Part shown: one piece after another, positions 3,708 through 27,397 of the stretch | How the letters are laid out: each line of letters starts with the position of its first letter | How positions within the stretch are numbered: the stretch's first letter is position 1 | DNA from: Candidatus Mcinerneyibacterium aminivorans | Lineage (GTDB): Bacteria > Macinerneyibacteriota > Macinerneyibacteria > Macinerneyibacteriales > Macinerneyibacteriaceae | Direction: 5' to 3' | NCBI GenBank assembly: GCA_008086245.1 | Contig: VSIX01000029.1 | Coordinates: forward strand, 11,813-75,812 | DNA: 64,000 nucleotides | Translations under genes and position numbers: made by a program | The notes under the pieces: model-generated | Database searches by the model: none | Seen by the model: the letters and a program-made list of their open reading frames with translations, nothing else | Told to the model about the DNA's origin: nothing

Positions 3708-4160
3708 ATGAAAACAATCGAATCAATTATTAAAAAAAAGGGAGATGAGGTTTTTTCAATTGGGGATGATAAAAAGCTACTTGAAGCTGTAAAATTATTG
3801 AATGAAAAAAAAATAGGGGCTCTGCTAATTTTAAATGACAAGAAGCAAATTGAAGGTATTATAAGTGAAAGAGATATTCTGCGGGAAGTTGATCATGATG
3901 AAGGGATAATTAAAAATGTCGATATTAAAAATGTTATGACAAAAAAAGAAAATATAATTGTTGCTCATTTAAAAGATGATATAGATTATGCAATGAGTGT
4001 TATGTTGAAGAATAAAATTAGACATTTACCCGTATTGGATGAAGAGGGAAATCTTGAGGGTATCATTTCTATTGGAGATGTATTGAAAAGTGAATTAAAC
4101 GAATATGATAGGGAAAATAAATATTTAAAGGATTATATTAGCGGGAAATATCCCGTTTAA
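3708..4160 (+). CDS. CBS-domain pair protein
   Basis: 150 aa with two CBS-like repeats (ISERDIL / IRHLPVLDEEGNLEGIISIGDVL). Confidence 0.7.
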   Translation: MKTIESIIKKKGDEVFSIGDDKKLLEAVKLLNEKKIGALLILNDKKQIEGIISERDILREVDHDEGIIKNVDIKNVMTKKENIIVAHLKDDIDYAMSVMLKNKIRHLPVLDEEGNLEGIISIGDVLKSELNEYDRENKYLKDYISGKYPV

Positions 4161-4215: not shown

Positions 4216-4244
4216 TTGAAAAACATTAAATATTATTATATAAT
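4216..4244 (+). promoter_or_regulatory. Sigma70-like promoter (TTGAAA-17 nt-TATAAT) upstream of the hydrogenase super-operon
   Basis: -35 TTGAAA at 4216-4221 and -10 TATAAT at 4239-4244 with a 17-nt spacer, seen directly. Sits about 45 nt upstream of ATG 4287. Confidence 0.5.
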
Positions 4245-4286
4245 TGATTAATTGTGAAATAATTAATTATTTATTTGGGGTTAATT

Positions 4287-5363
4287 ATGGTAAATAGAGT
4301 TTTTCAAATTAAAATTACTGATTGGGTTTCTTTTTTGGAAGACATGTATCGGGAGTATGATATTTATGCCCCCCAGAGTTTTGAGGATAAATTATACTTT
4401 GAATTCCTTGATAAATCAGATATAAAAAATATTTCCTATAGAGATATAGCCTACAGAACAGTGCAGCCTATAAAAATATTTTTTCTTCCAGTTGGAGAAA
4501 CGGTTTCAAATACTTCTAATTCAGAAGAAATTGATAAAAATTATAAAAAGAAGATTCTTGTTGGATTGAAAGCATGTGATTTAAATGCATTATCAATTTT
4601 AGATGAGGTATATCTGGATGAAGATTTTATAGATCCATTCTATAAACATAGAAGAGAAGATACCATTATAATAAGCAGTGACTGCACCGATCCTTTAGAG
4701 TCCTGTTTCTGCACTGAAGTTGATTCACAACCGTATCCTGTTAAAAATTTTGATTTAAATCTTTCATTGGTTGATAATTATATTTTGATTGAAGTTGGAT
4801 CAGAAAAAGGGCAGAAATTAATAGATGAATATGGAAAAGATTACTTTAAAGAAGCAAATAATGGTTTAATAGATAAGAGAGAGCAAAATAGAGAAAAAAT
4901 AAAAAGTAAAGTAGAGGAAATTAACACTGAATTTGCAACAAAGGATTCATATGATCTAATACTTAAAGGAAATTATGAATCTGAAATTTGGGAGGAACTT
5001 GCAGAGGATTGTGTTGAATGTGGGGGGTGTACTAATATTTGTCCTACATGTCACTGTTTTATACTTGTGGATGGTGCAAAGGGCGAGGAATTCTTTAAAA
5101 ATAAATACTGGGATTCATGTCAATTAGATGATTTTACAAAAATGGCTGCCGGTGAGGATCCAAGGGATGAAATATGGAAAAGGTTCAGAAACCGTTATTT
5201 TTGCAAATATAATTATAAACTTGATAATTTTAATATCATTGCCTGTACTGGATGCGGTAGATGTATAGAAGCCTGTCAGGGTGATATAGATAAAAGAGAG
5301 GTTTTAAAAAAAGTTAGTGAAACTAAAAAAAACAAAAAGACAAATCGGGAGGAAGTAAACTAA
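4287..5363 (+). CDS. Fe-S protein of the sulfhydrogenase beta (HydB) / anaerobic sulfite reductase AsrA family
   Basis: C-terminal CVECGGCTNICPTCHC (CxxCxxCxxxCP) plus CTGCGRCIEAC. Length and Cys pattern fit the HydB/AsrA family. The tracked start at 4275 is TTG; ATG 4287 (MVNRVF) is preferred. Confidence 0.6.
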   Translation: MVNRVFQIKITDWVSFLEDMYREYDIYAPQSFEDKLYFEFLDKSDIKNISYRDIAYRTVQPIKIFFLPVGETVSNTSNSEEIDKNYKKKILVGLKACDLNALSILDEVYLDEDFIDPFYKHRREDTIIISSDCTDPLESCFCTEVDSQPYPVKNFDLNLSLVDNYILIEVGSEKGQKLIDEYGKDYFKEANNGLIDKREQNREKIKSKVEEINTEFATKDSYDLILKGNYESEIWEELAEDCVECGGCTNICPTCHCFILVDGAKGEEFFKNKYWDSCQLDDFTKMAAGEDPRDEIWKRFRNRYFCKYNYKLDNFNIIACTGCGRCIEACQGDIDKREVLKKVSETKKNKKTNREEVN

Positions 5364-5413
5364 ATTAAAATTATAATAACATACAGGTAAAACCATAAAA
5401 ATGGGAGGGATTA

Positions 5414-6232
5414 ATGAAAGAAAACCCTTATAATCCAATAAAGGCAAAAGTTGATGATGTAATAACGGAATCATCAACAATTAAAACATTAAAGTTAATC
5501 CCTGAAGAAAATTTTAGTTTTCAAGCTGGAGAGTTTATCGAACTAACCGTTCCAGGTGTTGGAGAAGCTCCCTTTACACCATCATCTTCACCTTATAATA
5601 CAGAGTCCTTAGATGTTACTGTAATGGAAGTTGGACGCGTAACAAGAAAAATTCATAATATGAAAAAAGGGGATATTACAGGTATCAGGGGACCATTAGG
5701 CAAAGGTTATCCTATTGAAAAATTTGAAAATAAGGAAGTACTTCTTCTTGGGGGAGGAGTTGGTATGGCTCCAATTCGTTCCTTATTGCTTGAATTAATC
5801 CATGATACAAGCAGGTTTGAACAAATATATTTGTGCTACGGATCAAAAACACCATCAGATATTATTTATAAAAATCAGTTTGAAAAATGGAGAAATGTTA
5901 AGGGATTAAAAGTTTTAAGAACTGTCGATGAGCCTGATGAAAATTGGGAGGAGTGTGTAGGAGTTGCTACGGTGCTACTAGAAAAAATTGATATCAATGT
6001 AGAAAATAGTGTTGCAATTGTCTGCGGACCTCCTGTAATGATGAAATTTGGAACTTACAGTCTTCTTGATATGGGATTCAAATCGGAAGATATATATTTA
6101 TCGATGGAAAGAAATATGTCCTGCGGTATAGGTAAATGCGGTCACTGCGCTCTTGGTAAATATTATGTATGTAAAGATGGTCCAGTATTTACCTATGAAC
6201 AAATAAAAGACATTCCGGAGAAATGGGTATAA
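5414..6232 (+). CDS. FAD/NAD(P)-binding oxidoreductase with C-terminal [2Fe-2S] cluster (sulfhydrogenase gamma HydG / AsrB / PyrK-like family)
   Basis: GGGVGMAPIRS (GGxGxxP NAD(P) motif). C-terminal CGIGKCGHCALGKYYVCKDGPVF is a PyrK-type 2Fe-2S motif. Confidence 0.7.
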   Translation: MKENPYNPIKAKVDDVITESSTIKTLKLIPEENFSFQAGEFIELTVPGVGEAPFTPSSSPYNTESLDVTVMEVGRVTRKIHNMKKGDITGIRGPLGKGYPIEKFENKEVLLLGGGVGMAPIRSLLLELIHDTSRFEQIYLCYGSKTPSDIIYKNQFEKWRNVKGLKVLRTVDEPDENWEECVGVATVLLEKIDINVENSVAIVCGPPVMMKFGTYSLLDMGFKSEDIYLSMERNMSCGIGKCGHCALGKYYVCKDGPVFTYEQIKDIPEKWV

Positions 6233-6705
6233 TTATGAAAAGATTATTTATTGATTTAGAAGTTTGTAAAAAATGTGAAAAATGTGTAATAGAATGCAGT
6301 TATTACAATCATTATCCCGAGAATAATGGAATTACTGCTCTTAGAGAAAGAGTTAGATATGCTTTGATTTGTAAGCAATGTGAAGAAGCACCATGTGTTG
6401 AGGTATGTCCCCAGGATGCTTTGGAAAAACAGGAGGATGGATCATTAAAAAGATATAATATGCTTTGTGTCGGTTGTAATTCCTGTGTTATAGCATGTCC
6501 TTTTGGAACAATTTATCCTGAATTAATACCTTATCTGGATTCTGTTTGTGATTACTGTAAAAAGAGATTTAAAGATGCCTACCTTTGTATTGAAACCTGT
6601 CCTTATGATGCGATTGAATATAAAGAAGTAAAGGAAGATAAAGAAAAAAATATTATACTAATAAATAAAAATTTAGGGGTGCATTTAAAAAAATGGAAAC
6701 TTTAA
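6223..6705 (+). CDS. 2x[4Fe-4S] ferredoxin (HycB-like electron-transfer subunit)
   Basis: CKQCEEAPCVEVCP and CVGCNSCVIACP motifs. Overlaps the upstream gene by 10 nt. Confidence 0.7.
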   Translation: MGIIMKRLFIDLEVCKKCEKCVIECSYYNHYPENNGITALRERVRYALICKQCEEAPCVEVCPQDALEKQEDGSLKRYNMLCVGCNSCVIACPFGTIYPELIPYLDSVCDYCKKRFKDAYLCIETCPYDAIEYKEVKEDKEKNIILINKNLGVHLKKWKL

Positions 6706-7628
6706 AATCAATTCTATATTTTATAGTTTTTCCCGGTTTTTTATTTACTGCAATTGCCGGTATTCTTGTAAGCTGGATAGATAGAAAGGTAACTGCTCTG
6801 GTGCAGTGGAGGGTGGGTCCTCCCTTTATGCAGCCCTTATATGATTTTGTGAAGTTATTGGGAAAAGAAACCATTATTCCCAGAGGAAGTTCCAAATTTA
6901 CCTTTTTATTATCACCGGTTTTGAGTTTAACCTCAATTACAATAGTTTCAACAATGCTTTGGCATACATTTATAATGCCCTCAAAGGGTTTTGTTGGAGA
7001 TTTAATTGTGATAGTGTATTTGCTGGTGATGCCTTCAATTGCAATTATTCTTGCGGGTTTTTCTTCAGCCAATCCTCTATCATCTATTGGTGCTTCAAGA
7101 GAAATGAAATTGTTACTTTCCTATGAATTACCTTTTATAATTTCTGTTTTAGTTGCTGTTATAAATTCAGGAAATGAGATATTGATGGGCAATATTTTAA
7201 TGTTTCAAAATAATAACGGAGCAATAGCAGGTTCTTTATCAGGTATTCTTGCTTTTGTTGTAGCTATTTTATGTATGCAGGCAAAATTAGCTCTTGTTCC
7301 TTTTGATGCCCCGGAAGCCGAAACCGAAATAACAGGCGGACCATTTATTGAATATTCCGGAACTCCTCTAGCAATATTTAAACTTAGCAGGTGGATGCTT
7401 CTTTTTGTGTTACCGCTTTTTTTGGTTGGTGTTTTCTGGGGCGGTTTTAGAATTGAAGGCATAGATTTATTGTGGAGTGTTTTGAAATATGTAGCGCTGC
7501 TCGTAGTTATAATACTGATTAAAAACACAGCCCCGAGATTTAGAATAGATCAGGTATTAAAGTTATTTTGGGGACCGATTACTTTCTTAGCTATACTTGC
7601 TGTAATATTAGCATATTTAGGAGTATAA
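6693..7628 (+). CDS. Group-4 [NiFe] hydrogenase membrane subunit, NuoH/EchB/MbhM-like
   Basis: 311 aa polytopic protein. EAETEITGGPFIEYSG matches the NuoH-family signature. Confidence 0.75.
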   Translation: METLKSILYFIVFPGFLFTAIAGILVSWIDRKVTALVQWRVGPPFMQPLYDFVKLLGKETIIPRGSSKFTFLLSPVLSLTSITIVSTMLWHTFIMPSKGFVGDLIVIVYLLVMPSIAIILAGFSSANPLSSIGASREMKLLLSYELPFIISVLVAVINSGNEILMGNILMFQNNNGAIAGSLSGILAFVVAILCMQAKLALVPFDAPEAETEITGGPFIEYSGTPLAIFKLSRWMLLFVLPLFLVGVFWGGFRIEGIDLLWSVLKYVALLVVIILIKNTAPRFRIDQVLKLFWGPITFLAILAVILAYLGV

Positions 7629-7629
7629 A

Positions 7630-8046
7630 ATGGGATTTAAGGAAAACGCTTTAAAACGGTCTTTATGGGTTTTTCATTTTAGCGGTGGCTCCTGTAACAA
7701 CTGTGATATTGAACTACTTGATTGTTTAACTCCAAGATATGATTTAGAACGTTTTGGGATAGAACTTGTAGGAAGTATAAGGCATGCAGATATAATTGCT
7801 GTGACGGGCATTGTAAACAGACAGTGTAAGCCCCGGTTAGAAAAGATTTATAAACAGGCATCCAAACCAGTTTTTGTAGTTGCATGTGGAGCCTGTCCAT
7901 GTACGGGAGGGATATTCAAAAATAGTTATCATACAGCAGGTCCTTTAGATGAAATAATTCCGGTAGATGCATACATTCCCGGATGTCCTCCTAAACCCGA
8001 AGCAATAATATCTGCTATAGTGAAATTAAGAAATAAATTGGAGTAG
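7630..8046 (+). CDS. [NiFe] hydrogenase small subunit, NuoB/EchC/MbhJ-like
   Basis: CNNC...ACGACPCTGG...IPGCPP, the conserved cysteines that hold the proximal 4Fe-4S cluster in the NuoB family. Confidence 0.8.
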   Translation: MGFKENALKRSLWVFHFSGGSCNNCDIELLDCLTPRYDLERFGIELVGSIRHADIIAVTGIVNRQCKPRLEKIYKQASKPVFVVACGACPCTGGIFKNSYHTAGPLDEIIPVDAYIPGCPPKPEAIISAIVKLRNKLE

Positions 8047-8049
8047 AAA

Positions 8050-8499
8050 ATGAATGAAGAAGTAATAAATATTAAAAATAAGTTCGATAATAAAATTGTT
8101 GAGTTTTATGAAAAATCTAAAAAGAGATATTATATCACGATTGAAAAGGATGATTTGCTCGATTTTGTCGATTATATTTTTAATGAATTGGGGTTCAGGT
8201 ATATGATTGAAACAGGGATTGATACCCCCGGGGGAATAGAGATCCTTTATCACTTTTCTTTTGACAGCAGGGAAACTGTGGTTACTTTGAAGACACTCTT
8301 GGATTCTAAAGAACCTGTAGTGGAATCAATAAGTTCAATAGTACCGGGGGCTAAGTGGATTGAAAGAGAGATTATGGATATCCTCGGAGTTAAGTTTTTA
8401 AATCATCCTAATCCGGAAAAATTTATTCTATCAGATGATTGGAATGAAAAAGAGTATCCACTGAGAAGAGATTATGATGAAAAGAAAAATAATAATTAA
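8050..8499 (+). CDS. NuoC-like (30 kDa) subunit of the group-4 hydrogenase (MbhK-like)
   Basis: 149 aa with a NuoC-family core (IVPGAKWIEREIMDILGVKF). Confidence 0.7.
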   Translation: MNEEVINIKNKFDNKIVEFYEKSKKRYYITIEKDDLLDFVDYIFNELGFRYMIETGIDTPGGIEILYHFSFDSRETVVTLKTLLDSKEPVVESISSIVPGAKWIEREIMDILGVKFLNHPNPEKFILSDDWNEKEYPLRRDYDEKKNNN

Positions 8500-8523
8500 T
8501 AAGTGCTATAGGGGATTATTATT

Positions 8524-9744
8524 ATGAGTGATGAAAATAAAAATAGTAAAAAAGAAAGAACTGTAATACCGATAGGTCCTTATCATCCACTTCAGGAGGA
8601 ACCGGAATATTTTCAGCTGCATGTGGAAGGCGAGATTGTAAAAAAAATTGAATGGAGAACTTCTTATAATCATCGGGGAATAGAAAAGCTATCCCAATCT
8701 ATGAGCTATGACCAGGTTCCATATCTGGTTGAACGCATTTGTGGTATATGTTCAACTTCTCACCCGCTTTCTTATGTTAATGCGGTTGAAGACCTGGCTG
8801 AAATTGAAGTCCCTGTTAGGGCAAAATATATTAGAACTATAATAGCCGAACTTGAGAGGTTACATTCTCACCTCTTATGGGTAGGATTAGCGGGTCATTT
8901 TCTGGGATTTAATACGGTATGGATGTGGGCATGGAAGTACAGGGAACCAGTTCTTGAAATAATGGAAGCGGTAACAGGGAATAGGCAGAATTATGCTATG
9001 ATGAAAATTGGTGGAATTAGAAGGGATATTGATAATGAGGATATACCGAGCATAAAAAAAATGCTTGATGATTTAAAACCTAAAGTTGACCTTTTAAGAG
9101 GTGCAGTAATGGATGACCCTATCATTCACGCCCGTACAAAGGGGATAGGTGTATTAACACCGGAAGATGTTCATAATTATGGAGCTTTGGGTCCTACTGC
9201 AAGAGCTTCTGGCATAAAAGATGATATCAGAAGGGATTATCCCTATGCAGCTTATGATATCATTGACTGGGATGTAATCGTGGAAGAAGAAGGAGATGTT
9301 TTTGCAAAAGCTGTTGTCAGAATCAAGGAAATGTATGAATCAATAAGCATGATTCATCAATGTTTGGATGCTCTAAAAAAAGAAAATGGGGAAATTGAAA
9401 CAACTGTAAAGGAGATTCCTCCAGGAGATGGAATCGGACAGGCAGAAGCACCGAGAGGGGAAGTTTTCCATTTTGTTAGAAGTGATGGTACAAATAGACC
9501 TGTTAGACACAAAGTAAGGGCTCCCAGTTTTTGCAATGTTCCGACTTTTGAGGTTACAACTGTGGGGGAAACTATTTCAGATGCTGCAATTATACTTGCT
9601 GCAGTGGATCCATGCTATTGCTGTACCGAGCGCATGGCCGTTATTAATTCTGAAGGTGAAAAAAGTTTAACAGGGGATGATTTAATAAAAATGTCGCAGC
9701 AGAAAACTGAAAGAATGAGAAAATCCAAAAAGGAGAATAAATGA
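8524..9744 (+). CDS. Group-4 [NiFe] hydrogenase large (catalytic) subunit, NuoD/EchE/MbhL-like
   Basis: N-terminal RICGICSTSH (RxCGxCxxxH) and C-terminal DPCYCCTER (DPCxxC) NiFe-ligand motifs are both present. 406 aa. Confidence 0.85.
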   Translation: MSDENKNSKKERTVIPIGPYHPLQEEPEYFQLHVEGEIVKKIEWRTSYNHRGIEKLSQSMSYDQVPYLVERICGICSTSHPLSYVNAVEDLAEIEVPVRAKYIRTIIAELERLHSHLLWVGLAGHFLGFNTVWMWAWKYREPVLEIMEAVTGNRQNYAMMKIGGIRRDIDNEDIPSIKKMLDDLKPKVDLLRGAVMDDPIIHARTKGIGVLTPEDVHNYGALGPTARASGIKDDIRRDYPYAAYDIIDWDVIVEEEGDVFAKAVVRIKEMYESISMIHQCLDALKKENGEIETTVKEIPPGDGIGQAEAPRGEVFHFVRSDGTNRPVRHKVRAPSFCNVPTFEVTTVGETISDAAIILAAVDPCYCCTERMAVINSEGEKSLTGDDLIKMSQQKTERMRKSKKENK

Positions 9745-11537
9745 ATTTGATATTGTTAACTATTGCAATTCCTCTCATTGCAGGCTTTTTAATTTTTATT
9801 CTTCCAAAAAAATTTACTAATATTACAAAGTTTCTTTCAACAATTTCCATATTAATATCTTTTATAATTAATATAATTTTGTTCATTAATACAGAAAAAA
9901 TAGTCAACAACTATTTTATGTTTGATAACTTATCTAAATTTATTTTGCTTTTTATAGGCCTGTTTGCAGTCTTTGTAATTATATATTCACTTAAATATAT
10001 AGAGAGTGTTACAGAAAATATAAATATGTATTTTTCATATATTTTGTTTACTGTAAGTGCATCTTATGGAGCAGCTCTTGCTAATAATTTAATTCTTCTC
10101 TCTGTATTTTGGGGATTTTTAGGTTTTACTTTATATATGTTAATAAATACGAATGACAATGCAACTGCTGAATCCAGTAAAGCTTTTATAATAATAGGAG
10201 CTACAGATTCATTGATGATAATTGGTATAGGTATTTTATATTACATCACCAGTTCTCTAAATATCAGCAGCATTAATATTTCTTTAAAACAGGGTCCCAT
10301 TTTTTTACCTACCATTGCATTTTTAACTTTTGTTGCTGCAGCATTTGCTAAAGCCGGCGCTATGCCTTTTCATACTTGGATTCCGGATATGTCGGAAAAG
10401 GCTCCCATTCCAGTTACAGCATTTTTACCTGCATCTTTGGATAAGCTTCTTGGGATATATTTACTTGCAAGAATAAGTATTAGTGTTTTTGAGCTTAATT
10501 CCTCAATGACATTTATATTATTACTGTTTGGATCAATTACAATAATTGCAGCCGTTTTTATGGCACTTGTTCAGCATGATTTAAGAAAACTGCTTTCCTA
10601 TCATGCAATAAGTCAGGTTGGGTATATGGTTCTTGGTATCGGTACGGGTAATCCCGTAGGTATAGCAGGGGGATTATTTCATATGCTTAATCATTCAATA
10701 TATAAAAGTAATTTGTTTTTAATAAGTGGTTCGGTAAAATATCGTACCAATACAATGAATATGGATAAACTTGGCGGACTGGCTAAATACATGCCGATAA
10801 CTTTTATTGGGGCTGTAATTGCCTCTCTATCAATATCCGGGGTGCCCCCATTTAATGGATTTGTTTCAAAATGGATGGTATATCAGGGTCTAATTGATAT
10901 GGGAAAAGCTGGAAGTAAATTATGGATTTTATGGCTTGTAGCAGCTATGTTTGGTTCCGCTTTGACTCTTGCTAGTTTCATGAAAGTCATTTATTCAGTA
11001 TTTCTGGGAAGATCAGAAAAAAAATGGAGTTTTGGGGATGTTAACTGGACTATGCTTTTACCTATTATTTTCCTATCGATTCTGTGTGTAGGATTCGGAG
11101 TTTTCGCTTTTGCAGTTCCATTAAAATTATTTATAATTCCAGCCCTTGGAGAAATTGGATTATTTGGATTATGGAATTCTCAAATGGCAACCTTATTAAT
11201 GTTAGTGGGCATTGCTTTGGGCTTTTTGATATACTTAATTGGAAATATGAAAAATGTACGTGAAAGCGATATTTTTATTGGAGGCGAAGAAATTCCTTCA
11301 AATAAAAGAGTTACAGGAACTGAATTTTATGACAGTATAAGGGATATATCTATTTTAGATAAAATATATAAAATGGCAGAGAAGAAATATTTTGACCTAT
11401 ATGAAATGCTTAAAAAATTTACATTTGCTATCACTAACAGACTCAGATTAATTCATTCGGGGAAACTTGTAGCATATATTCTTTGGATATTTTTTGGTAT
11501 GGCTGTTTTGTTTATTTTATTAAACATTAGGGGCTAA
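9741..11537 (+). CDS. Antiporter-like membrane subunit (NuoL/MrpA N-terminal type; MbhH-like)
   Basis: 598 aa polytopic protein. LLSYHAISQVGYMVLGIG matches the NuoL/M/N/MrpA/D proton-pump family core. Confidence 0.75.
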   Translation: MNLILLTIAIPLIAGFLIFILPKKFTNITKFLSTISILISFIINIILFINTEKIVNNYFMFDNLSKFILLFIGLFAVFVIIYSLKYIESVTENINMYFSYILFTVSASYGAALANNLILLSVFWGFLGFTLYMLINTNDNATAESSKAFIIIGATDSLMIIGIGILYYITSSLNISSINISLKQGPIFLPTIAFLTFVAAAFAKAGAMPFHTWIPDMSEKAPIPVTAFLPASLDKLLGIYLLARISISVFELNSSMTFILLLFGSITIIAAVFMALVQHDLRKLLSYHAISQVGYMVLGIGTGNPVGIAGGLFHMLNHSIYKSNLFLISGSVKYRTNTMNMDKLGGLAKYMPITFIGAVIASLSISGVPPFNGFVSKWMVYQGLIDMGKAGSKLWILWLVAAMFGSALTLASFMKVIYSVFLGRSEKKWSFGDVNWTMLLPIIFLSILCVGFGVFAFAVPLKLFIIPALGEIGLFGLWNSQMATLLMLVGIALGFLIYLIGNMKNVRESDIFIGGEEIPSNKRVTGTEFYDSIRDISILDKIYKMAEKKYFDLYEMLKKFTFAITNRLRLIHSGKLVAYILWIFFGMAVLFILLNIRG

Positions 11538-11538
11538 T

Positions 11539-12093
11539 ATGCTTGAACTTTACATTGTTTTAATATTAATGATAATTGGAGCTATAATAGCAGTAGAAAC
11601 AAAAAGTATTTTATCTTCGATAGTTGCTCTGGGTAAAGTAGGACTGGGGCTTACCATTGCCTTTTTGATATTAAAAGCTCCGGATTTGGCTATAGTTCAG
11701 CTAGTTGTTGAGATTTTAACCCTAATAATACTTATCCGTGCAACTCTTGGAAGAGATGTAAAATATACTAAAGAAAATCAGAACTGGGGGGTTAAATTTC
11801 TCTCAATTATTTTAATTATTATCTTTTTAATTTTTTCCTACAATGTTTTACAATCATTGCCGGAGTTCGGAAATCCAATATTAAAAGTTGCAGATTACTA
11901 TATAGAAAACGGCATGAAAGAAACGGGAGCTGCAAATCTTGTTACTTCTGTTATTCTTGATTTCCGTGCCTTTGATACTTTAGGAGAAGCAACAGTTTTA
12001 TTTACTGCTATTTTAGGAGCTTTAGCGGTTTTAAGAAAAAATGGAATTAAGGATAAAGATACAAAGGAAAATAAAGGAGTTCAAGGTGATTAA
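11539..12093 (+). CDS. Separately encoded MrpA C-terminal-like / MnhB-domain subunit (MbhD/E-like)
   Basis: N-terminal TM region plus NLVTSVILDFRAFDTLGEATVLFTAILG, the MnhB-domain signature. Confidence 0.6.
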   Translation: MLELYIVLILMIIGAIIAVETKSILSSIVALGKVGLGLTIAFLILKAPDLAIVQLVVEILTLIILIRATLGRDVKYTKENQNWGVKFLSIILIIIFLIFSYNVLQSLPEFGNPILKVADYYIENGMKETGAANLVTSVILDFRAFDTLGEATVLFTAILGALAVLRKNGIKDKDTKENKGVQGD

Positions 12094-12535
12094 TAACAGA
12101 GATTCTCAGGGTATGTCAGTAATTGTAAAAACTATTACAAGGTTGACTATTGGATTGATTCTTCTGTATGGTGTGTACATATTATTACACGGACATATTA
12201 CACCGGGAGGAGGTTTCGCCGGGGGAGTTATAATTGCCCTGTCTTTTATACATATAATGCTTGCTTTTGGAAAAAATGTTGCCCTTGAGAAATTAAATCA
12301 AACCTGGAGCAAAATTTTTGAAAGTACAGGGGCGCTGTTATTTATTACTATAGCATTTCTCGGTTTTTTTGGAGGGGTGTTTTTTAATAATTTTCTGGAT
12401 AAAGGAGAACATTTTGAACTTTTCAGTGCCGGAACAATCTTGCTTTCGAATATTGCAATATTTTTAAAGGTTGGAGCAGGTTTGTTTCTTTTATTTGTTG
12501 CTCTTGTTCTATTTAAAATTGGGGGTAGAAAGTGA
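12086..12535 (+). CDS. MrpB-like subunit (MbhF-like)
   Basis: HGHITPGGGFAGGVIIA is the MrpB signature. The tracked start (12041) overlaps the upstream gene. GTG 12086, preceded by AAAGGAG, is preferred. ATG 12113 is an alternative. Confidence 0.55.
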   Translation: MINNRDSQGMSVIVKTITRLTIGLILLYGVYILLHGHITPGGGFAGGVIIALSFIHIMLAFGKNVALEKLNQTWSKIFESTGALLFITIAFLGFFGGVFFNNFLDKGEHFELFSAGTILLSNIAIFLKVGAGLFLLFVALVLFKIGGRK

Positions 12536-12867
12536 TATATTTTCTTTGCTTTATATTATTTAGTATTGGACTTTATAGTATATTAACAAAAAGAAATCTC
12601 ATTAAAATTATAATCGGGATATCCATAGTTGATTATGCAATAAATTTATTCTTTATTTTGGTGGGATATAGAATGAATGGGAGATCTCCAATTTTAGAAA
12701 AAGGAGAAGAAATTGAAAGAATAGTCGATCCATTGCCCCAGGCCGTAGTTTTGACTTCTATTGTTATCGGTCTGGCAGTAACTGCATTACTGGTAGCAAT
12801 TGCTATTAGAATATATGAAAAATATGGTACTTTTGATATCAATGAAATTAAAGAATTGAAAGGATAA
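12532..12867 (+). CDS. MrpC/NuoK-like subunit (MbhG-like)
   Basis: 111 aa, 3 TM segments, NuoK/MrpC-like. Confidence 0.6.
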   Translation: MIYFLCFILFSIGLYSILTKRNLIKIIIGISIVDYAINLFFILVGYRMNGRSPILEKGEEIERIVDPLPQAVVLTSIVIGLAVTALLVAIAIRIYEKYGTFDINEIKELKG

Positions 12868-12869
12868 AA

Positions 12870-14363
12870 ATGGAACATATTATACCATTGTTTGTAGCAA
12901 TAAGTCTGGCAACAGCATTTTTAATATCACTGCTGGGATCAAAATTTAAATTTTTTAGAACAGCATTTCCTGTCATTTCTTCAGCTGCACTTGTTATACT
13001 TTCTGTTCTTTCAATTTTTCTTGTAAATAATAATGGTTTAATGGTATATAAAATGGGAGGCTGGATTCCTCCTATAGGAATATGTATGGTTCTGGACGGA
13101 TTGTCTTCCTTTATGCTTTTAACCGTTAATTTAGTTGCTTTTTTTATAATGATATATTCAATAAATTATGTTAAAAAATATACAGATGTTTATAAATATT
13201 TTGGGCTGCTATTTTTGATGCTGGCAGGAATGAATGGTGTAATTATAACAGGGGATCTTTTCAATTTATTTGTGTATTTGGAAGTTGCTGCAGTATCAAG
13301 TTATGCTCTTGTAGCTTTTGGTACAGGGAGACAGGAGCTGGAAGCATCCTTTAAATATATGGTTATGGGAACACTTGCTTCCGGTTTAATATTGTTATCA
13401 ATTGCTTTAATGTACAGCTATACTTCAACTTTAAACATGGCTGATATTGGCAAATCTCTTGCAAATGAAGGAAGTTCTTCCGTGATAATTTTTATTTCAG
13501 TAATGTTTATTGTAGGTTTTGGTCTAAAAGCAGCACTTGTGCCGTTTCACTGGTGGCTGCCCGATGCTCACCCATCTGCACCTGCACCTATTTCTGCTAT
13601 GCTTTCAGGGGTGCTTATAAAAGCATTAGGAGTTTATGCTATAATAAGAATATTTTACAATGTTATCGGAAGCAATATATATACTTCAAGAATATTGCTT
13701 GTATTAGGAACCCTTTCCATGATAGTTGGAGTAATTTTCGCAATTGGACAGTATGACTTTAAAAGATTGCTTGCATACCATTCAATAAGTCAGATCGGTT
13801 ATGTTATACTTGGAATCGGTTTGGCAACTCCTCTCGGAATTTTGGGGGGACTTTTCCATTTATTTAACCACTCAATATTCAAATCATTGCTCTTTTTAAA
13901 CTCGGGAGCTGTTGAATATTCAACCGGAACAAGAGATTTAAAGAAAATGGGTGGACTTAATAAGAAAATGCCGGTAACCGGAAATACATCAATGATAGCT
14001 TCTATGTCAATAGCTGGGATTCCACCTTTTAACGGATTCTGGAGTAAGCTTTTGATAATAATCGCCTGTGTAGAAGCTAATGAGTATATTTATGGACTAT
14101 TTGCTGTCATAGGTAGTGTTCTTACAATGGCATCCTTTATGAAAGTTCAGAAATATGCATTTCTGGGCAAACTAAAGGAAAAGTGGAAAAATATAGAGGA
14201 AGTACCATTTGGAATGAAGTTTTCTATGATTTGTTTGGCTCTTATTTGTGTATTTGGTGGTTTATTACTGTTACCTGAAATATCTAATTTATTACTGAAA
14301 GAAGCATCAAATGCAGTTTTAATAGGTAAAGAATATGTTAACCAGGTTCTGGGGAGTGTTTAA
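12870..14363 (+). CDS. Second antiporter-like subunit (MrpD/NuoM-N-like)
   Basis: 497 aa. LLAYHSISQIGYVILGIG and WWLPDAHPSAPAPISA fit the MrpD/NuoM family. Confidence 0.75.
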   Translation: MEHIIPLFVAISLATAFLISLLGSKFKFFRTAFPVISSAALVILSVLSIFLVNNNGLMVYKMGGWIPPIGICMVLDGLSSFMLLTVNLVAFFIMIYSINYVKKYTDVYKYFGLLFLMLAGMNGVIITGDLFNLFVYLEVAAVSSYALVAFGTGRQELEASFKYMVMGTLASGLILLSIALMYSYTSTLNMADIGKSLANEGSSSVIIFISVMFIVGFGLKAALVPFHWWLPDAHPSAPAPISAMLSGVLIKALGVYAIIRIFYNVIGSNIYTSRILLVLGTLSMIVGVIFAIGQYDFKRLLAYHSISQIGYVILGIGLATPLGILGGLFHLFNHSIFKSLLFLNSGAVEYSTGTRDLKKMGGLNKKMPVTGNTSMIASMSIAGIPPFNGFWSKLLIIIACVEANEYIYGLFAVIGSVLTMASFMKVQKYAFLGKLKEKWKNIEEVPFGMKFSMICLALICVFGGLLLLPEISNLLLKEASNAVLIGKEYVNQVLGSV

Positions 14364-14857
14364 TGAGAAGCAAAATAGTTTTATTTATAGTGGCGTTGGT
14401 AGTTTGGCTGGGTTTCACCTGGCCACCTGATTTGTCTCATTTGTTGGTAGGAATACTTGTAGCTATTTTCGTGGCTTACATGACAGGTGATATGTTTATA
14501 ACACGTCCACATCACTTAATACATCCTTTGAGGTATTTCTGGCTATTTGTCTATATTCCTGTGTTTATATGGGAATGTTTTAAAGCTAATCTGGATGTCG
14601 TTTACAGGGTTATCCATCCTGATGTTCCTATTAATCCGGGTATTGTTAAAGTTAAAACCAAATTAAAGTCGGATACTGGAATTACTTTTTTAGCCAATTC
14701 TATTACCCTAACACCTGGAACCTTAAGTGTGGATGTAGATCAGGATAATGGATACTTATATATCCACTGGATCCATGTTTTTAATGAAGATGTTGAAGGA
14801 GCAACTAAAGATATTGTTAGAAGATTTGAATATATATTGGAAAGGATTTTCGAATAA
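14363..14857 (+). CDS. MrpE-like subunit (MbhA-like)
   Basis: 164 aa, N-terminal TM pair. Position in the Mrp E-F-G series. Confidence 0.5.
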   Translation: MRSKIVLFIVALVVWLGFTWPPDLSHLLVGILVAIFVAYMTGDMFITRPHHLIHPLRYFWLFVYIPVFIWECFKANLDVVYRVIHPDVPINPGIVKVKTKLKSDTGITFLANSITLTPGTLSVDVDQDNGYLYIHWIHVFNEDVEGATKDIVRRFEYILERIFE

Positions 14858-15228
14858 TGAAAAAGAGATTGCGATGGATTTTAGGTTCTGTAGTTTTAAT
14901 TATAATATTATATTTAATTTTATTTTATCCCTTCCAGATATTAATATATGAGAAATTATTATTTATACCTGTATTAAAAAGGGTAATCTTTATTCTCTTA
15001 TTGAGTGCAGCTTTTTGTTTGTTTAGGATTATGAAAGGACCTACTGCTCTGGATAGAATAGTTGCTATTGATATTTTGGGGATATTAATTGTTGGGTTAT
15101 GCTCTGTATTAACTATTACCACCGGAAGAAGCTGGTATCTTGATATAGGTATAGCCTGGGCATTACAGAGTTTTATAGGAACAATAGCACTTTCAAAATA
15201 TATGGAAGGGCGGGATTTTGATGATTGA
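14857..15228 (+). CDS. MrpF-like subunit (MbhB-like)
   Basis: 123 aa, small 3-TM protein immediately following the MrpE-like ORF. Confidence 0.5.
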   Translation: MKKRLRWILGSVVLIIILYLILFYPFQILIYEKLLFIPVLKRVIFILLLSAAFCLFRIMKGPTALDRIVAIDILGILIVGLCSVLTITTGRSWYLDIGIAWALQSFIGTIALSKYMEGRDFDD

Positions 15229-15565
15229 TACTATAGGGATTATTTTTATAGGTCTAGGGATCTTTTTTGACCTTTTTGGTTGTTTGGGTTTAATAAGATT
15301 TCCGGATTTATATAATAGGCTACAGGCATCAACCAAATGTGTTACATTTGGAACGGGAAGTATTTTATTTGGAACTTTTTTAATAGTGGGATTTACAGCG
15401 GCAGGTATAAAAGCATTATTTACAATTATCTTTATTGTTCTTACAGCGCCGGTTTCTGCCCATGCTTTGTCCAAAAGTGCACATATGTCCGGAATACCAT
15501 TATGGCAGGAAAGTGTATGCGATAAATTGGAAGATGAAAACAGATATAAAAAGAACGACCAGTAG
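15218..15565 (+). CDS. MrpG-like subunit (MbhC-like)
   Basis: 115 aa, TM-rich. ...TAPVSAHALSKSAH resembles the MnhG family. Confidence 0.55.
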   Translation: MMIDTIGIIFIGLGIFFDLFGCLGLIRFPDLYNRLQASTKCVTFGTGSILFGTFLIVGFTAAGIKALFTIIFIVLTAPVSAHALSKSAHMSGIPLWQESVCDKLEDENRYKKNDQ

Positions 15566-15595
15566 TATTATAAAATATAATAGTGAGGGATAAAT

Positions 15596-16234
15596 ATGAA
15601 GCTACCCAGTCTTTTTCAGTTTAGAGTTTTAAAAGAGGCTTTAAAATCAATATTTTCGCCGAGATATACTTCCAAATATCCGGCTGTGTCCCATGTTCCC
15701 CCAAAAAAATTTAGGGGGAAACCGGAATTTAATGAGAAAGAATGCGTTGGTTGTAAGGCTTGTGCCGAAGTTTGTCCTACAGAGGCAATTGAGGTAGTTG
15801 ATGATGTTGAAATATCGCCTCCTAATAGAAAATTTCTTCATCATTATGATTTATGTATATTTTGCGGTCACTGTGAGGCGAACTGTATTACAGAAAAGGG
15901 GATTGTTTTAGAAGACGAATACGATCTTGCTGTGTTTGATAGAGACGAAGCATTTACTTCTATTGATAAAGAATTAATAATCTGTGAGGATTGTGGGGAA
16001 ATAATTGGGGCTAAGGATCATTTAATCTATCTGGCTAAAAAATTAGGGCCTCTTGCTTACGGTAACTTCCCCCTTATTATGACAGCACAAAAAGAACTAA
16101 AAATCGTAAACAGAGATCTTCCTTCCACAATATCTGGAGAAAAAAGAAGAACGGACATGTTTAATGTACTGTGCCCCAAATGTAGAAGTGAAATACTTAT
16201 AAATATTGGTGGAAGTGAGAATGAAGAAGATTGA
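15596..16234 (+). CDS. NuoI-like 2x[4Fe-4S] subunit (MbhN-like) with a Cys-rich C-terminal extension
   Basis: CVGCKACAEVCP and CIFCGHCEANC motifs. An extra CEDCGE...CPKC pair lies in the C-terminal ~80 aa. Confidence 0.75.
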   Translation: MKLPSLFQFRVLKEALKSIFSPRYTSKYPAVSHVPPKKFRGKPEFNEKECVGCKACAEVCPTEAIEVVDDVEISPPNRKFLHHYDLCIFCGHCEANCITEKGIVLEDEYDLAVFDRDEAFTSIDKELIICEDCGEIIGAKDHLIYLAKKLGPLAYGNFPLIMTAQKELKIVNRDLPSTISGEKRRTDMFNVLCPKCRSEILINIGGSENEED

Positions 16235-16667
16235 CGACATATTAAAAGGGAAGGTACTTTTTGTAGGAATCGGAAATGAAATGAGAGGAGATGATGGGAT
16301 AGGTCCTTTTTTTGTCAAAAAGGGGCGAAGATTATTAGATGATTATCAGTTTTTGAATGTAAAAGAAACACCGGAAAATTATTTTGACAAAATGTTAGAA
16401 AAGGATATTGATACTTTAATATTTGTCGATGCCGTTGATTTTAATTCATCACCCGGAACCATCAAATTATTTGGTAAAGATCAGATTGTTAATTCTTCAA
16501 TATCCACACATAATTCATCATTAAAAATGTCGATTAATTTTTTAAAACAATTTAAAGCAAATCTAAGAATATTTTTAATAGGAATTCAACCTGAGAACTG
16601 TCAATTGAATAACAATTTATCATTTAATGTGAAAAGTAGTATTGATAGACTTCTAGATAAACTATAG
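16206..16667 (+). CDS. hycI: Hydrogenase maturation endopeptidase (HycI/HybD family)
   Basis: VLFVGIGNEMRGDDGIGPF matches the GiGN...DDg.G protease signature. Confidence 0.8.
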   Translation: MVEVRMKKIDDILKGKVLFVGIGNEMRGDDGIGPFFVKKGRRLLDDYQFLNVKETPENYFDKMLEKDIDTLIFVDAVDFNSSPGTIKLFGKDQIVNSSISTHNSSLKMSINFLKQFKANLRIFLIGIQPENCQLNNNLSFNVKSSIDRLLDKL

Positions 16668-16704
16668 TTCTTTATTTTAATTAATTTTTAGAGAGAGTAC
16701 AAAA

Positions 16705-17061
16705 ATGGATAATATGGATATAGCGGATGATTTATATTTACTTATTAAAGACCTTGCAGAAGAAGAAAATATACACTCTGTAAAGTATATTAAATTGGTA
16801 ATTGGTAAAGCATTGGAGGTTAATAAGAAAGGATTATTCAAAAAATTACAGAAGGATATATTTCCCGGGACAATTTGTAAGAATACTAAATTGGATATTG
16901 TAGAAGAAAGTGTGAAATTAAAGTGTAGAAAATGCAGCAAAATTATGACACCTGATCAAAAGTTTTTTGTATATTGTAATTATTGCGGGGGGCATGATTT
17001 TGATATTATTCAGGGTAGAAAGATATATATTGACAAAATTGAAGGGAAGACAAAGCAATAA
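16705..17061 (+). CDS. HypA-like zinc-finger protein lacking the N-terminal MHE nickel-binding motif (HypA paralog)
   Basis: CRKC-14 aa-CNYC zinc finger. Overall alignment to HypA is good, but the N-terminus is MDNMDIADD, not MHE. Confidence 0.55.
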   Translation: MDNMDIADDLYLLIKDLAEEENIHSVKYIKLVIGKALEVNKKGLFKKLQKDIFPGTICKNTKLDIVEESVKLKCRKCSKIMTPDQKFFVYCNYCGGHDFDIIQGRKIYIDKIEGKTKQ

Positions 17062-17079
17062 AAATTATAAGGAGGAAGT

Positions 17080-17724: not shown

Positions 17725-18104
17725 AAAATATTATCAATATTATTTTAAAAGCTGCAAGGGATAATAATGCAGAAAAAATATATTCAATTAAAATCGGTAT
17801 AGGTGAATTAACAATGCTTGAGAAAAATCAGATCCAATACTGGTTAAAGCTAATGCTGGATGAGATAGATATAGCCAAAAACAGCAAGTTAAATTTACAT
17901 ATAATAAAAGGCGTTATAAGATGTCAGGAGTGCAATTTTAAGGGACCGCTTGAATCAACTATGGAACTTAACCATCTTTTCCCTGTAATTAAATGCCCGG
18001 AGTGTGAAAGCAATAATATTGAAATTATTAAAGGGGACAGATGCCTTGTAGAAGAAATGGAAGTAGATAAATATAATGAAAGTATATCAGGAGGGGATAA
18101 TTAA
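17703..18104 (+). CDS. hypA: Hydrogenase nickel insertion protein HypA (canonical)
   Basis: N-terminal MHEFTAV (MHE Ni site). CQEC...CPEC zinc finger. Overlaps hypB by 22 nt. Confidence 0.85.
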   Translation: MHEFTAVKNIINIILKAARDNNAEKIYSIKIGIGELTMLEKNQIQYWLKLMLDEIDIAKNSKLNLHIIKGVIRCQECNFKGPLESTMELNHLFPVIKCPECESNNIEIIKGDRCLVEEMEVDKYNESISGGDN

Positions 18105-19414
18105 TGTGCTATGCTATTCCTGGACAGGTTGTAGATATTAATAAGAAAAGATTGATTGTAGAGTATTTCGGTGAAAAAAGAAAGGTCCTAAACGAATTTT
18201 TGGATATCAGCATAGGAGATTATATATATGCCCAGGGGGGATATGCCATCAATAAAATACCCGAAAAGGAAGCCGTATCCATTTTAACTGCATGGAGGGA
18301 AACTTTTTTCAATTTGCAAAAAGTTGATTTAAAAATATCTAAAAGGGATTATAAGGATAAAAATATTAGAAAAGATATTGCGAATATACTGGATAAAGCT
18401 GTAGAAAATAAAGACCTTTCTAAGAAAGAACTTTTAAAACTGATGAATATAGAAAAAAAAGAAGAATTAGAAATGCTTTATAAAACGGCAAATTTTTTGA
18501 GAAGAAAATATATGGGTAATTCATGCTGTGTTCATGGAATTATAGAATATTCGAATAACTGTGTTCGTAATTGTAAATATTGCGGTATATCTACTTATAA
18601 TTCTGATATATCAAGATATAATATAGAAGAAAAAAATATTGTTAAAATTGCAAATAAAGCTGTTAACGAGCATGGCTTTATGGCTCTGGTTTTACAGAGT
18701 GGTGAATCTGATGAGTACAGTATTGAAAAACTATGCAGGATTATAAAAAAAATTAGAAAAGATATTGCTGTTTTGATTTTTATAAGTATGGGAGAACTTT
18801 CCAGAAAAGAATTGCAAAAATTGTATGATGCAGGGGCAAGAGGTTTTCTCCTGCGGTTTGAAACAAGCAATGAAGAGTTATATTCAAAATTACATCCCGG
18901 ATATAGATTGGAAGATAGAATTAACTGTATACAAAACGCTTCTGATATAGGTTATTTTATTGTAACAGGTGGTTTAATTGGACTCCCCGGGCAAACAAGA
19001 AAAGATGTATTAAATTCCATATTGCTTGCGAGAAAACTTAAAACCGAAATGTACAGCTTTGCCCCCTTTATACCCACACCTAATACTCCCCTTAACAGTG
19101 AAACCAGTCCGGAAGAAAAAGAAGTTTTAAAAACTCTGGCTATATCCAGAATAGTTGATCCAGAGAATGCCAAAATATTAATTACAACTGCATTTGAAAC
19201 AATAAATAAATCGGCAAGAAAAAATGGCCTTCTAGCTGGAGGTAATTCTTTAATGTTAAATGTTACTCCCGATAAATATAAAAATAATTATTTCTTGTAT
19301 CCAAACAGGGCTCATAATAATGAAACTATACAGGAACAAATTGATGAAACCGTAAATCTGCTGAATTATCTCGGTAGAGCCCCAACTGATATAGGTATAA
19401 ATTGGAATAGTTAA
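18104..19414 (+). CDS. Fusion protein: N-terminal HypC/HupF-like domain (MCYAIPG...) fused to a HydE/BioB/PylB-family radical SAM domain
   Basis: First ~70 aa: MCYAIPGQVVDIN...GDYIYAQGGYAI...EKEAVSILTAWRE, a HypC pattern with Cys2. From ~aa 125: LRRKYMGNSCCVHGIIEYSNNCVRNCKYCGIS (CX3CX2C), LQSGE, LLRFETSNEELYSKLHP, IGLPGQT and FIPTPNTPL, close to HydE motifs as remembered. Start overlaps the hypA stop (TAATG). Confidence 0.7.
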   Translation: MCYAIPGQVVDINKKRLIVEYFGEKRKVLNEFLDISIGDYIYAQGGYAINKIPEKEAVSILTAWRETFFNLQKVDLKISKRDYKDKNIRKDIANILDKAVENKDLSKKELLKLMNIEKKEELEMLYKTANFLRRKYMGNSCCVHGIIEYSNNCVRNCKYCGISTYNSDISRYNIEEKNIVKIANKAVNEHGFMALVLQSGESDEYSIEKLCRIIKKIRKDIAVLIFISMGELSRKELQKLYDAGARGFLLRFETSNEELYSKLHPGYRLEDRINCIQNASDIGYFIVTGGLIGLPGQTRKDVLNSILLARKLKTEMYSFAPFIPTPNTPLNSETSPEEKEVLKTLAISRIVDPENAKILITTAFETINKSARKNGLLAGGNSLMLNVTPDKYKNNYFLYPNRAHNNETIQEQIDETVNLLNYLGRAPTDIGINWNS

Positions 19415-27348: not shown

Positions 27349-27397
27349 ATAGTCCTCCTTTACCTAATATTTCATATTTTTATTATATTCTATTTTT

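Follow-up and report, generated by a model that had tools for sequence, protein, structure and literature searches.

A Hun-type operon of Candidatus Mcinerneyibacterium aminivorans codes for a membrane-bound [NiFe] hydrogenase with a putatively NAD(P)H-linked entry module

In this study we analyzed a stretch of 64,000 nucleotides (here called the window) from Candidatus Mcinerneyibacterium aminivorans, corresponding to positions 11,813 to 75,812 of contig VSIX01000029.1 (assembly GCA_008086245.1). Positions 4287-16234 of the window form one operon coding for a membrane-bound [NiFe] hydrogenase with a predicted flavin- and NAD(P)H-binding entry module, and we assign the locus, on its predicted gene content, to the already published Hun family. 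The enzyme is probably a 16-subunit, Mrp-linked group 4 [NiFe] hydrogenase wired like formate hydrogenlyase (FHL), with HunAB as an NAD(P)H-linked input, coupled to ion movement and likely reversible.

Results

One operon joins a soluble module to a membrane-bound hydrogenase

A homologue search found HunA to be 100% identical to a protein of the metagenome-assembled genome (MAG) of Candidatus M. aminivorans, which represents a candidate phylum. The G+C content of the window is ∼30%. Across positions 4287-19414 the + strand carries 21 genes, the first 16 of which (4287-16234, tightly packed on the same strand) constitute the hydrogenase proper, while maturation genes continue the array to 19414, where an AT-rich gap of 260 nt follows. 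Because no gap in the array is wider than 50 nt and several start and stop codons overlap, we regard the hydrogenase genes as a single operon with the following products.

4287..5363, + strand: HunA, AsrA/HydB(SHI-beta)-like protein with multiple [4Fe-4S] clusters (Pfam Fer4_22, 1e-26)
5414..6232, + strand: HunB, AsrB/HydG(SHI-gamma)/PyrK-like FAD, NAD(P)H and [2Fe-2S] protein (Pfam NAD_binding_1, 5.6e-18; DHODB_Fe-S_bind, 3.5e-11; FAD_binding_6)
6223 or 6235..6705, + strand: HunC, HycB/CooF-type polyferredoxin (Pfam Fer4 families; 16 Cys, four [4Fe-4S] motifs)
6693..7628, + strand: HunD, NuoH/MbhM/HycD-like membrane anchor (Pfam NADHdh, 8e-65)
7630..8046, + strand: HunE, NuoB/MbhJ/HycG-like small subunit with a [4Fe-4S] cluster (Pfam Oxidored_q6, 2e-32)
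8050..8499, + strand: HunF, NuoC/MbhK-like subunit (Pfam Complex1_30kDa, 4e-27)
8524..9744, + strand: HunG, [NiFe] large subunit (Pfam Complex1_49kDa and NiFeSe_Hases)
9741..11537, + strand: HunH, MrpA/NuoL-like antiporter subunit (Pfam Proton_antipo_M, 5e-54)
11539..12093, + strand: HunI, MbhD- plus MbhE-like subunit, resembling the MrpA C terminus and NuoJ (Pfam MbhD, 3e-14; MbhE, 2e-11)
12041..12535, + strand: HunJ, MnhB/MrpB-like subunit (Pfam MnhB, 2e-26, matching from residue 28; the true start is possibly the ATG at 12113)
12532..12867, + strand: HunK, MrpC/NuoK-like subunit (Pfam Oxidored_q2, 3e-29)
12870..14363, + strand: HunL, MrpD/NuoM/N-like antiporter subunit (Pfam Proton_antipo_M, 9e-69)
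14363..14857, + strand: HunM, MrpE-like subunit (Pfam MNHE, 5e-46)
14857..15228, + strand: HunN, MrpF-like subunit (Pfam MrpF_PhaF, 4e-16)
15218..15565, + strand: HunO, MrpG-like subunit (Pfam PhaG_MnhG_YufB, 9e-25)
15596..16234, + strand: HunP, NuoI/HycF-like subunit with two [4Fe-4S] clusters and a further CxxC...CxxC at its C terminus (Pfam Fer4 families)

Open reading frames (ORFs) and Pfam domains agreed with an earlier reading of this DNA (the original prediction) on the genes, their positions and their strand, and on a single operon in which a HycB-like ferredoxin connects an AsrAB/HydBG-like flavin module with a group 4 [NiFe] hydrogenase of the Mrp type. Two details had to be corrected. 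The predicted overlaps of 10-13 nt among the soluble genes exist between hunB and hunC (10 nt if translation starts at the ATG at 6223; with the ATG at 6235 the genes lie 2 nt apart) and between hunC and hunD (13 nt), but hunA and hunB are separated by a spacer of 50 nt (5364-5413) that contains a GGGAGGG ribosome-binding site. Moreover, the membrane hydrogenase had been counted as 14 subunits, while 13 genes follow the soluble trio hunA-hunB-hunC, giving 16 in total.

The region between 6.2 and 6.7 kb, where a promoter or terminator would have split the module from the hydrogenase, has no intergenic space, and a consensus scan found no terminator-like site in it; the sole promoter-like match there is on the minus strand within coding sequence (6270-6243) and is of background frequency. 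Just 5' of hunA lies the best sigma-70-like promoter match.

4216..4244, + strand: TTGAAA-17-TATAAT, 11/12 consensus positions

It is a consensus match only, and promoter-like matches in the window were not more numerous than in the shuffled background. Terminator-like matches numbered 11, compared with 6.7 ± 2.8 in shuffled sequences, which we rated as not above the shuffles. We rejected internal terminators as operon breaks, the matches being weak (3-5 GC pairs) and within coding sequence. An Rfam scan of the whole window gave no family at gathering score, and no riboswitch or RNA leader was found by it.

HunG retains the features of a [NiFe] large subunit

HunG carries the motifs RICGICSTSH and DPCYCCTER, which align with the NiFe-ligating motifs of HycE and MbhL. 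Its four NiFe-ligand cysteines are invariant in all 59 homologues compared, the complete DPCYCCTER is present in 52 of them, and the C-terminal extension past CTER, which is 36 aa long in HunG, measures 31-49 aa across the whole set. The hallmark of the sulfane-sulfur reductases Mbs and Mbx, the loss of NiFe-ligating cysteines from the NuoD-like subunit, is thus absent, all four being retained. Among solved structures, HunG matched Escherichia coli HycE (7z0s_E, 4e-85) and Pyrococcus furiosus MbhL (6cfw_L, 3e-83) with ∼285 bits each, versus 163 bits for MbsL (6u8y_L, 9e-47). Given both CxxC motifs, the C-terminal extension, the presence of a HycI-type endopeptidase gene and the far higher scores with HycE and MbhL than with MbsL, HunG is predicted to be a bona fide hydrogenase subunit and not an Mbs/Mbx-like derivative, in line with the original prediction. 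Its identity to the HunG proteins of Atribacterota MAGs and a Clostridia MAG obtained at Ocean Drilling Program (ODP) site 1244, which belong to lineages for which Hun was first described, amounts to 63-69%.

The input module is homologous to sulfhydrogenase beta and gamma subunits

HunA aligned over residues 14-350 with the beta subunit of P. furiosus sulfhydrogenase 1 (SHI, an NADPH-dependent soluble hydrogenase; PDB 9nez_B, 3.4e-42), and about 17 of its cysteines are invariant across 36 homologues. HunB aligned over residues 3-268 with SHI gamma (9nez_C, 1.8e-53). The NCBIfam models ShyB, HydB and AsrA match HunA over its full length, each below its cut-off. Scores with the AsrA and AsrB equivalogs (TIGR02910 and TIGR02911) were 141.4 versus 323 bits for HunA and 223.1 versus 288.6 bits for HunB, and those with the group 3b ShyBC/HydBG equivalogs 173 versus 690 and 206 versus 600 bits, so that the pair falls in neither class. 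No AsrC/NIR_SIR-type gene was present among the ORFs of the window scanned with domain profiles.

The cofactor sites of HunB are strongly conserved. Across 74 aligned Hun-linked homologues, the motifs GE-x-PF-[TA]-P-SS, G-x-x-T, GGG-V-G-x-A-P-x-R and CGPP, as well as the four 2Fe-2S cysteines, vary little or not at all, which argues for selection on the binding of flavin and pyridine nucleotide. HunB of the window itself has GEAPFTPSS, GRVT, GGGVGMAP and CGPP, the FAD and NAD(P) motifs of the FNR superfamily. We also considered whether a conserved K/R145, located after beta-strand 2 of the NAD domain and aligned with an Arg of SHI gamma and a Glu of PyrK (the subunit of NAD-dependent dihydroorotate dehydrogenase), could tell NADH from NADPH specificity. 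This criterion was dropped because the GxR motif is present in NADH-specific and NADPH-specific FNR-family enzymes alike; the position is not diagnostic across the superfamily.

HunC matched HycB (7z0s_B, 1.6e-10) and other HycB-type chains in the PDB, and HydN, DmsB and FDH3-beta-like models in NCBIfam. Of the remaining electron-transfer subunits, HunE scored 143.6 bits with the NCBIfam NuoB subfamily model (cut-off 116), and HunP matched the NCBIfam formate hydrogenlyase Fe-S subunit (1e-27) and had HycF as its best solved relative (7z0s_F, 7e-19, versus 1e-10 for MbhN, 6cfw_N).

The module is inherited together with the membrane complex

A homologue search with HunA returned more than 2,400 relatives, and two metagenomic contigs with ∼51% identity showed the same gene order as the window. 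Scanning one genome per species yielded 80 loci, with which we compared the window proteins by tblastn. Downstream sequence of 4.5 kb or more was available for 53 loci, and 51 of these have HunA, HunB, HunC, NuoH and NuoB in this order on one strand. These species-representative loci come from more than 10 phyla, and the arrangement is far beyond chance. The hosts include Actinomycetota, Clostridia, Latescibacterota, Aerophobetes, Atribacterota, Sumerlaeota, Fermentibacteria/Aegiribacteria, Cloacimonadota, Omnitrophota, Planctomycetia, Calditrichaceae, Gemmatimonadota, Marinimicrobia and Elusimicrobia, among others.

Several loci (L029, L032, L041 and L059) have a group-3b-like operon immediately 5' of hun. 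The Hun-linked pair is 38-54% (HunA) and 45-64% (HunB) identical to the window proteins, whereas the separate pair of a group-3b-like hydrogenase operon, at loci that carry one as well, reaches only 28-33% (HydB-like) and 35-39% (HydG-like). Given the fixed order and the separation from these paralogues, HunAB belongs to the membrane complex as a dedicated component that is inherited with it.

Some loci depart from the standard layout. A Spirochaetales locus (L069, 9938-15602) encodes HunABC, NuoB, NuoC, NuoD, NuoI and HycI with no membrane genes in between, and a Latescibacterota locus (L076, 9242-18120) combines rex and a HunA-like gene with MrpE, a pyridine-nucleotide-disulfide oxidoreductase and more Mrp genes. 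Loci from Gemmatimonadota and Calditrichaceae contain a molybdopterin-oxidoreductase-like ORF between hunB and hunC (L043, 12023-13780; L017, 12103-13902), with weak Pfam scores and possibly degenerate; the spacing in L036, L047 and L056 points to the same insert. A variant of this kind was reported both by Glass et al. and in a 2026 paper on group 4b.

Rex genes adjoin hun operons in other genomes

Rex regulators are redox-sensing repressors that sense NADH/NAD+. Among the 71 loci with enough upstream sequence, 25 have a Rex-family gene (PF06971 and PF02629) directly 5' of hunA on the same strand (for example L001, 1908-2564, and L002, 9256-9879), and in L029, L032 and L041 such a gene lies 5-7 kb 5' of hunA, just before the group-3b-like operon. 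The Rex proteins at hun loci share 37-89% identity with two query Rex sequences. This synteny, which Glass et al. do not mention, appears to tie the hun operon to the NADH pool. Together, the homology to SHI beta and gamma, the invariant FAD and NAD(P) motifs and the Rex synteny in relatives make an NAD(P)H link of the HunAB module plausible.

Maturation genes include a HypC-HydE-like fusion

The last five genes of the array are related to hydrogenase maturation.

16206..16667, + strand: HycI-type maturation endopeptidase (Pfam HycI, 2e-13)
16705-17061, + strand: HypA, nickel insertion (Pfam)
17080-17724, + strand: HypB, nickel insertion (Pfam cobW/HypB, 3e-23)
17703-18104, + strand: second HypA, nickel insertion (Pfam)
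18104..19414, + strand: final gene, joining a HypC domain to a HydE-like radical SAM enzyme (Pfam HupF_HypC, PF01455, 4e-14; Radical_SAM, 2e-20)

The two HypA paralogues (Pfam HypA, 4e-19 and 5e-23) flank HypB. The ORFs scanned in the 64-kb window yielded no gene for HypD, HypE or HypF. The fusion protein has an N-terminal Met-Cys in its HypC domain and scored 242.9 bits with the NCBIfam HydE model (TIGR03956), below the cut-off of 254.6. Proteins of this type are widespread, with at least 120 clusters at 53-81% identity, and both domains are present in all but two of those listed; hosts include Margulisbacteria, Saganbacteria, Omnitrophica and Caldatribacterium. In the three genomic contexts of relatives that we examined (L083, 10001-11299; L084, 10001-11302; L085, 10001-11308), a [NiFe] hydrogenase operon of the Hun type or of group 3b ends with HycI, HypA and then the fusion. 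In two of the three a bona fide HydG (463 and 506 bits) is encoded close by on the 3' side, directly after the fusion in L085 and separated from it by a rex gene in L084. The HypC-HydE-like fusion was described nowhere in the literature that we searched; it may represent a radical-SAM route to ligand synthesis for the [NiFe] cofactor.

Two further features of the window lie outside the array. A gene for a protein with two CBS domains (3708-4160, + strand) ends 126 nt 5' of hunA and is kept at the same position in the contig of the closest relative (L003, ∼1521; 75% identity); it may encode a nucleotide-sensing regulator. On the minus strand, positions 26437-29576 encode in a row a DUF362 protein, a 483-aa polyferredoxin (Fer4_5 and several 4Fe-4S dicluster domains) and TatC, possibly a separate redox module.

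Discussion

A proposed electron path and its direction

Gene content, operon packing, cofactor motifs and conserved synteny lead us to the following proposal for which substrate Hun uses, in which direction it runs and how it is coupled to ions. In the peripheral arm, which would be FHL-like, HunC would correspond to HycB, HunP to HycF, HunE to HycG and HunG to HycE. Since HunP resembles HycF and HunC resembles HycB, the two-subunit HunA-HunB module would take the position held by formate dehydrogenase or carbon monoxide dehydrogenase (CODH) in group 4a and 4b enzymes and replace the former as input enzyme. Electrons would be exchanged between NAD(P)H and the FAD and [2Fe-2S] cluster of HunB, the [4Fe-4S] clusters of HunA, the four clusters of HunC, the two of HunP, the single one of HunE and finally the NiFe site of HunG. 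The redox reaction would be coupled conformationally, via HunD, to movement of H+ or Na+ through the Mrp-like subunits HunH-O.

The redox potential of NAD(P)H is ∼-320 mV and that of H+/H2 is -414 mV at 1 bar. Under standard conditions NAD(P)H is therefore ∼90 mV more positive than H+/H2, and because the couple is near equilibrium Hun is most likely reversible. In a fermenting cell at moderate or very low H2, the ion gradient or the low H2 itself would allow electrons from NAD(P)H to be vented as H2, whereas at high H2 the enzyme would reduce NAD(P)+ and export ions. Rex-type regulation in relatives, where the genes would be switched on at high NADH, favors the gradient-assisted venting of H2. 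Going one step further, we tentatively propose, as a possible rather than probable role, that Hun is a single-enzyme device for NADH-to-H2 disposal driven by the Na+/H+ gradient via the Mrp arm, and that in reverse it works as an ion-exporting H2:NAD(P)+ oxidoreductase at high H2.

Points against an NAD(P)H-linked, ion-coupled enzyme

Several points weigh against the reading that we prefer. The first is energetic: as NAD(P)H-dependent H2 formation is endergonic at standard potentials, it cannot also export ions, which rules out the simple picture of an ion pump that evolves H2 at the expense of NAD(P)H. Of the NAD(P)H-linked ion pump described in the original prediction, the versions with reverse electron flow or H2 uptake remain sensible, but the one that evolves H2 while exporting ions does not. 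The direction and coupling given above are guesses.

The membrane arm raises a second point. It looks functional, yet it does not simply duplicate Mrp. All canonical charged residues are present in HunL (E138, K220, K251, K338 and K393, invariant in 33 homologues), and K204, K235 and K377 of HunH are invariant in its family. However, at residue 125 of HunH a Gly replaces the Glu of transmembrane helix 5 (WE to WG) in 43 of 48 family members, which suggests that part of the ion path differs from that of Mrp and complex I.

The regulatory argument has its limits, too. Rex can also control ferredoxin-dependent hydrogenases, a Rex gene stands beside only about a third of the hun loci, and the window has no rex gene. 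A candidate Rex operator 5' of hunA (TTGTGAANNNNTTCACAA, at most 3 mismatches, at 4252-4269 just past the -10 box) was rejected: the window contains 9 Rex-box-like sites where 9.15 are expected, which is the chance level, and the site is consequently no evidence of regulation. Finally, the published donor is a different one. Glass et al. proposed that ferredoxin donates electrons via HunABC, and HydDB describes group 4g, to which they assigned HunG, as putatively ferredoxin-coupled.

Alternative functions of the HunABC module

In the ferredoxin-driven enzyme of Glass et al., electrons would pass from ferredoxin via HunA and HunC to H2 while the Mrp module exports Na+/H+ as in the membrane-bound hydrogenase (MBH) of Pyrococcus, the NAD(P) fold of HunB being vestigial or regulatory. 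The reaction is exergonic and would explain an ion-exporting Mrp module, and HunA, HunC and HunP offer many exposed clusters for such a donor. Yet MBH accepts ferredoxin without a module of this kind, and a vestigial site would not be expected to keep its FAD and NAD(P) motifs as strictly as the 74 HunB homologues do. The Rex synteny also argues against it, as does the closest solved relative of HunB, SHI gamma, which together with SHI beta is described as involved in NADPH oxidation in a 2026 paper on group 4 hydrogenases. We therefore consider ferredoxin as the sole donor unlikely, though it is the strongest of the alternatives.

Less likely again is a three-way hub between ferredoxin, NAD(P)(H) and H2, in which Hun would either work as a ferredoxin:NAD(P)+ oxidoreductase that is coupled to ions and has an H2 valve, or form H2 by confurcation from ferredoxin and NAD(P)H. 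Bird et al. (2019) named 'ferredoxin or NADH' as donor, and the 2026 paper proposes bifurcation or confurcation for relatives that have SHI-beta/gamma homologues and a degenerate Fdh-like subunit. The hub is more attractive for the variants with a molybdopterin-like ORF between hunB and hunC (L043, L017). The window has no such third branch, however, and no obvious bifurcating cofactor is apparent; the FAD of HunB would lie terminally in an unbranched chain, like that of SHI gamma, PyrK and NfnA.

That HunAB is a sulfur-compound reductase passing electrons to sulfite or polysulfide, with its catalytic partner encoded elsewhere, is very improbable: despite the family resemblance to AsrA and AsrB and the phrase 'and/or reduce sulfur compounds' in Bird et al., both proteins stay below the AsrA/AsrB cut-offs, the scanned window ORFs include no AsrC-like partner, Glass et al. 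found asrC missing from hun operons, and the module is locked to a hydrogenase with its NiFe ligands retained. The original prediction would have been refuted by a module that classified as a sulfite or polysulfide reductase with its own partner elsewhere, and the Asr scores and the scanned ORFs gave no such result.

Overall, the comparative data appear to tilt the donor question toward NAD(P)H, and an NAD(P)H-linked Hun is the reading that we carry forward.

Relation to earlier work and significance

The novelty implied in the original prediction did not stand. Glass et al. (2021; bioRxiv 10.1101/536078) named the 16-gene 'Hun' Ni-Fe hydrogenase-Na+/H+ antiporter supercomplex and reported it from MAGs of Atribacteria, Firmicutes, Omnitrophica, Elusimicrobia and Bacteroidetes and from Kosmotoga isolates; they described HunAB as AsrAB-like, noted the unusual motif pair CGIC...CYCC in HunG, and placed HunG in HydDB group 4g yet distant from other 4g sequences. 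NADH had been mentioned as a donor even earlier, when Bird et al. described a hydrogenase cotranscribed with an adjacent oxidoreductase in Atribacteria. Also in 2019, a Saganbacteria variant that has asrA, asrB and cooF together with a molybdopterin protein was termed 'enigmatic' by Matheus Carnevali et al. The 2026 paper independently inferred NADP(H) coupling for related group 4b clusters with SHI-beta/gamma homologues and considered bifurcation possible, while several MAG papers, as is routine in metabolic reconstructions, annotate the enzyme as a group 4g Mbh that depends on ferredoxin. Our search of the literature for follow-up on Hun and for data on the Kosmotoga hydrogenase returned nothing past the 2021 preprint. 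The present analysis adds one more host lineage and, from motif conservation and Rex synteny, comparative arguments for NAD(P)H.

Hun-type operons are carried by many uncultured phyla of anaerobes that are dominant in sediments of the subsurface, in oil reservoirs and in digesters, including Atribacterota, Omnitrophota, Cloacimonadota, Aerophobetes, Latescibacterota and Planctomycetia. If Hun is NAD(P)H-linked, the redox balance, H2 thresholds and energy yields predicted for its carriers would change, and Hun would form a biochemically new class of energy-converting hydrogenase. Should Hun indeed dispose of NADH as H2 in a single enzyme, it would be the first pyridine-nucleotide-linked energy-converting hydrogenase and a widespread alternative to confurcating [FeFe] hydrogenases or to Rnf plus Ech in subsurface fermenters.

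Comparison with known systems

The locus shares with the Hun operons of Glass et al. the 16 genes hunA-P in the same order, with eight Mrp-like genes and a terminal NuoI-like HunP, the AsrAB-like HunAB without AsrC and the motif pair CGIC...CYCC, and it is for these reasons that we assign it to this family. It differs in coming from a new host lineage, Candidatus M. aminivorans, and in that we read the entry module as NAD(P)H-linked and not ferredoxin-linked. Unlike some of its relatives, it has neither a molybdopterin-like insert nor an adjacent rex gene.

AsrA and AsrB of the anaerobic sulfite reductase AsrABC belong to the same superfamily as HunA and HunB, but Hun has no AsrC, scores below the cut-offs and has a hydrogenase as its partner. 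The beta and gamma subunits of P. furiosus SHI (group 3b, 9nez) are full-length homologues of HunA and HunB with the same cysteines and FAD/NAD(P) motifs; there the module feeds a cytoplasmic group 3 dimer, whereas that of Hun would feed a membrane-bound group 4 enzyme via an extra polyferredoxin.

P. furiosus MBH (group 4d, 6cfw) shares with Hun the Mrp-derived arm, the NuoB/C/D/H/I-like subunits and a bona fide NiFe site. It consists of 14 subunits (MbhA-N) without a HunABC module, while Hun has 16 genes and two Proton_antipo_M subunits. MBH has a single antiporter-like subunit and a gene order unlike that of Hun, and it uses ferredoxin directly.

CODH-Mch-Mnh of Thermococcus onnurineus is an Mrp-linked CO hydrogenlyase. 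This type of enzyme, its formate-dependent counterpart (HydDB group 4b; T. onnurineus Fdh-Mfh-Mnh) and E. coli FHL (group 4a, 7z0s) are built on the same logic as Hun, in which a soluble dehydrogenase is combined with a HycB/CooF-type polyferredoxin, with HycF/G/E-like hydrogenase subunits and with a membrane arm, and HycE, HycF and HycB are among the best solved relatives of HunG, HunP and HunC. Compared with E. coli FHL, which has HycC/D, Hun has a complete Mrp set in its membrane arm, and compared with all of them its input would be the FAD/NAD(P)-binding HunAB instead of a formate dehydrogenase or CODH.

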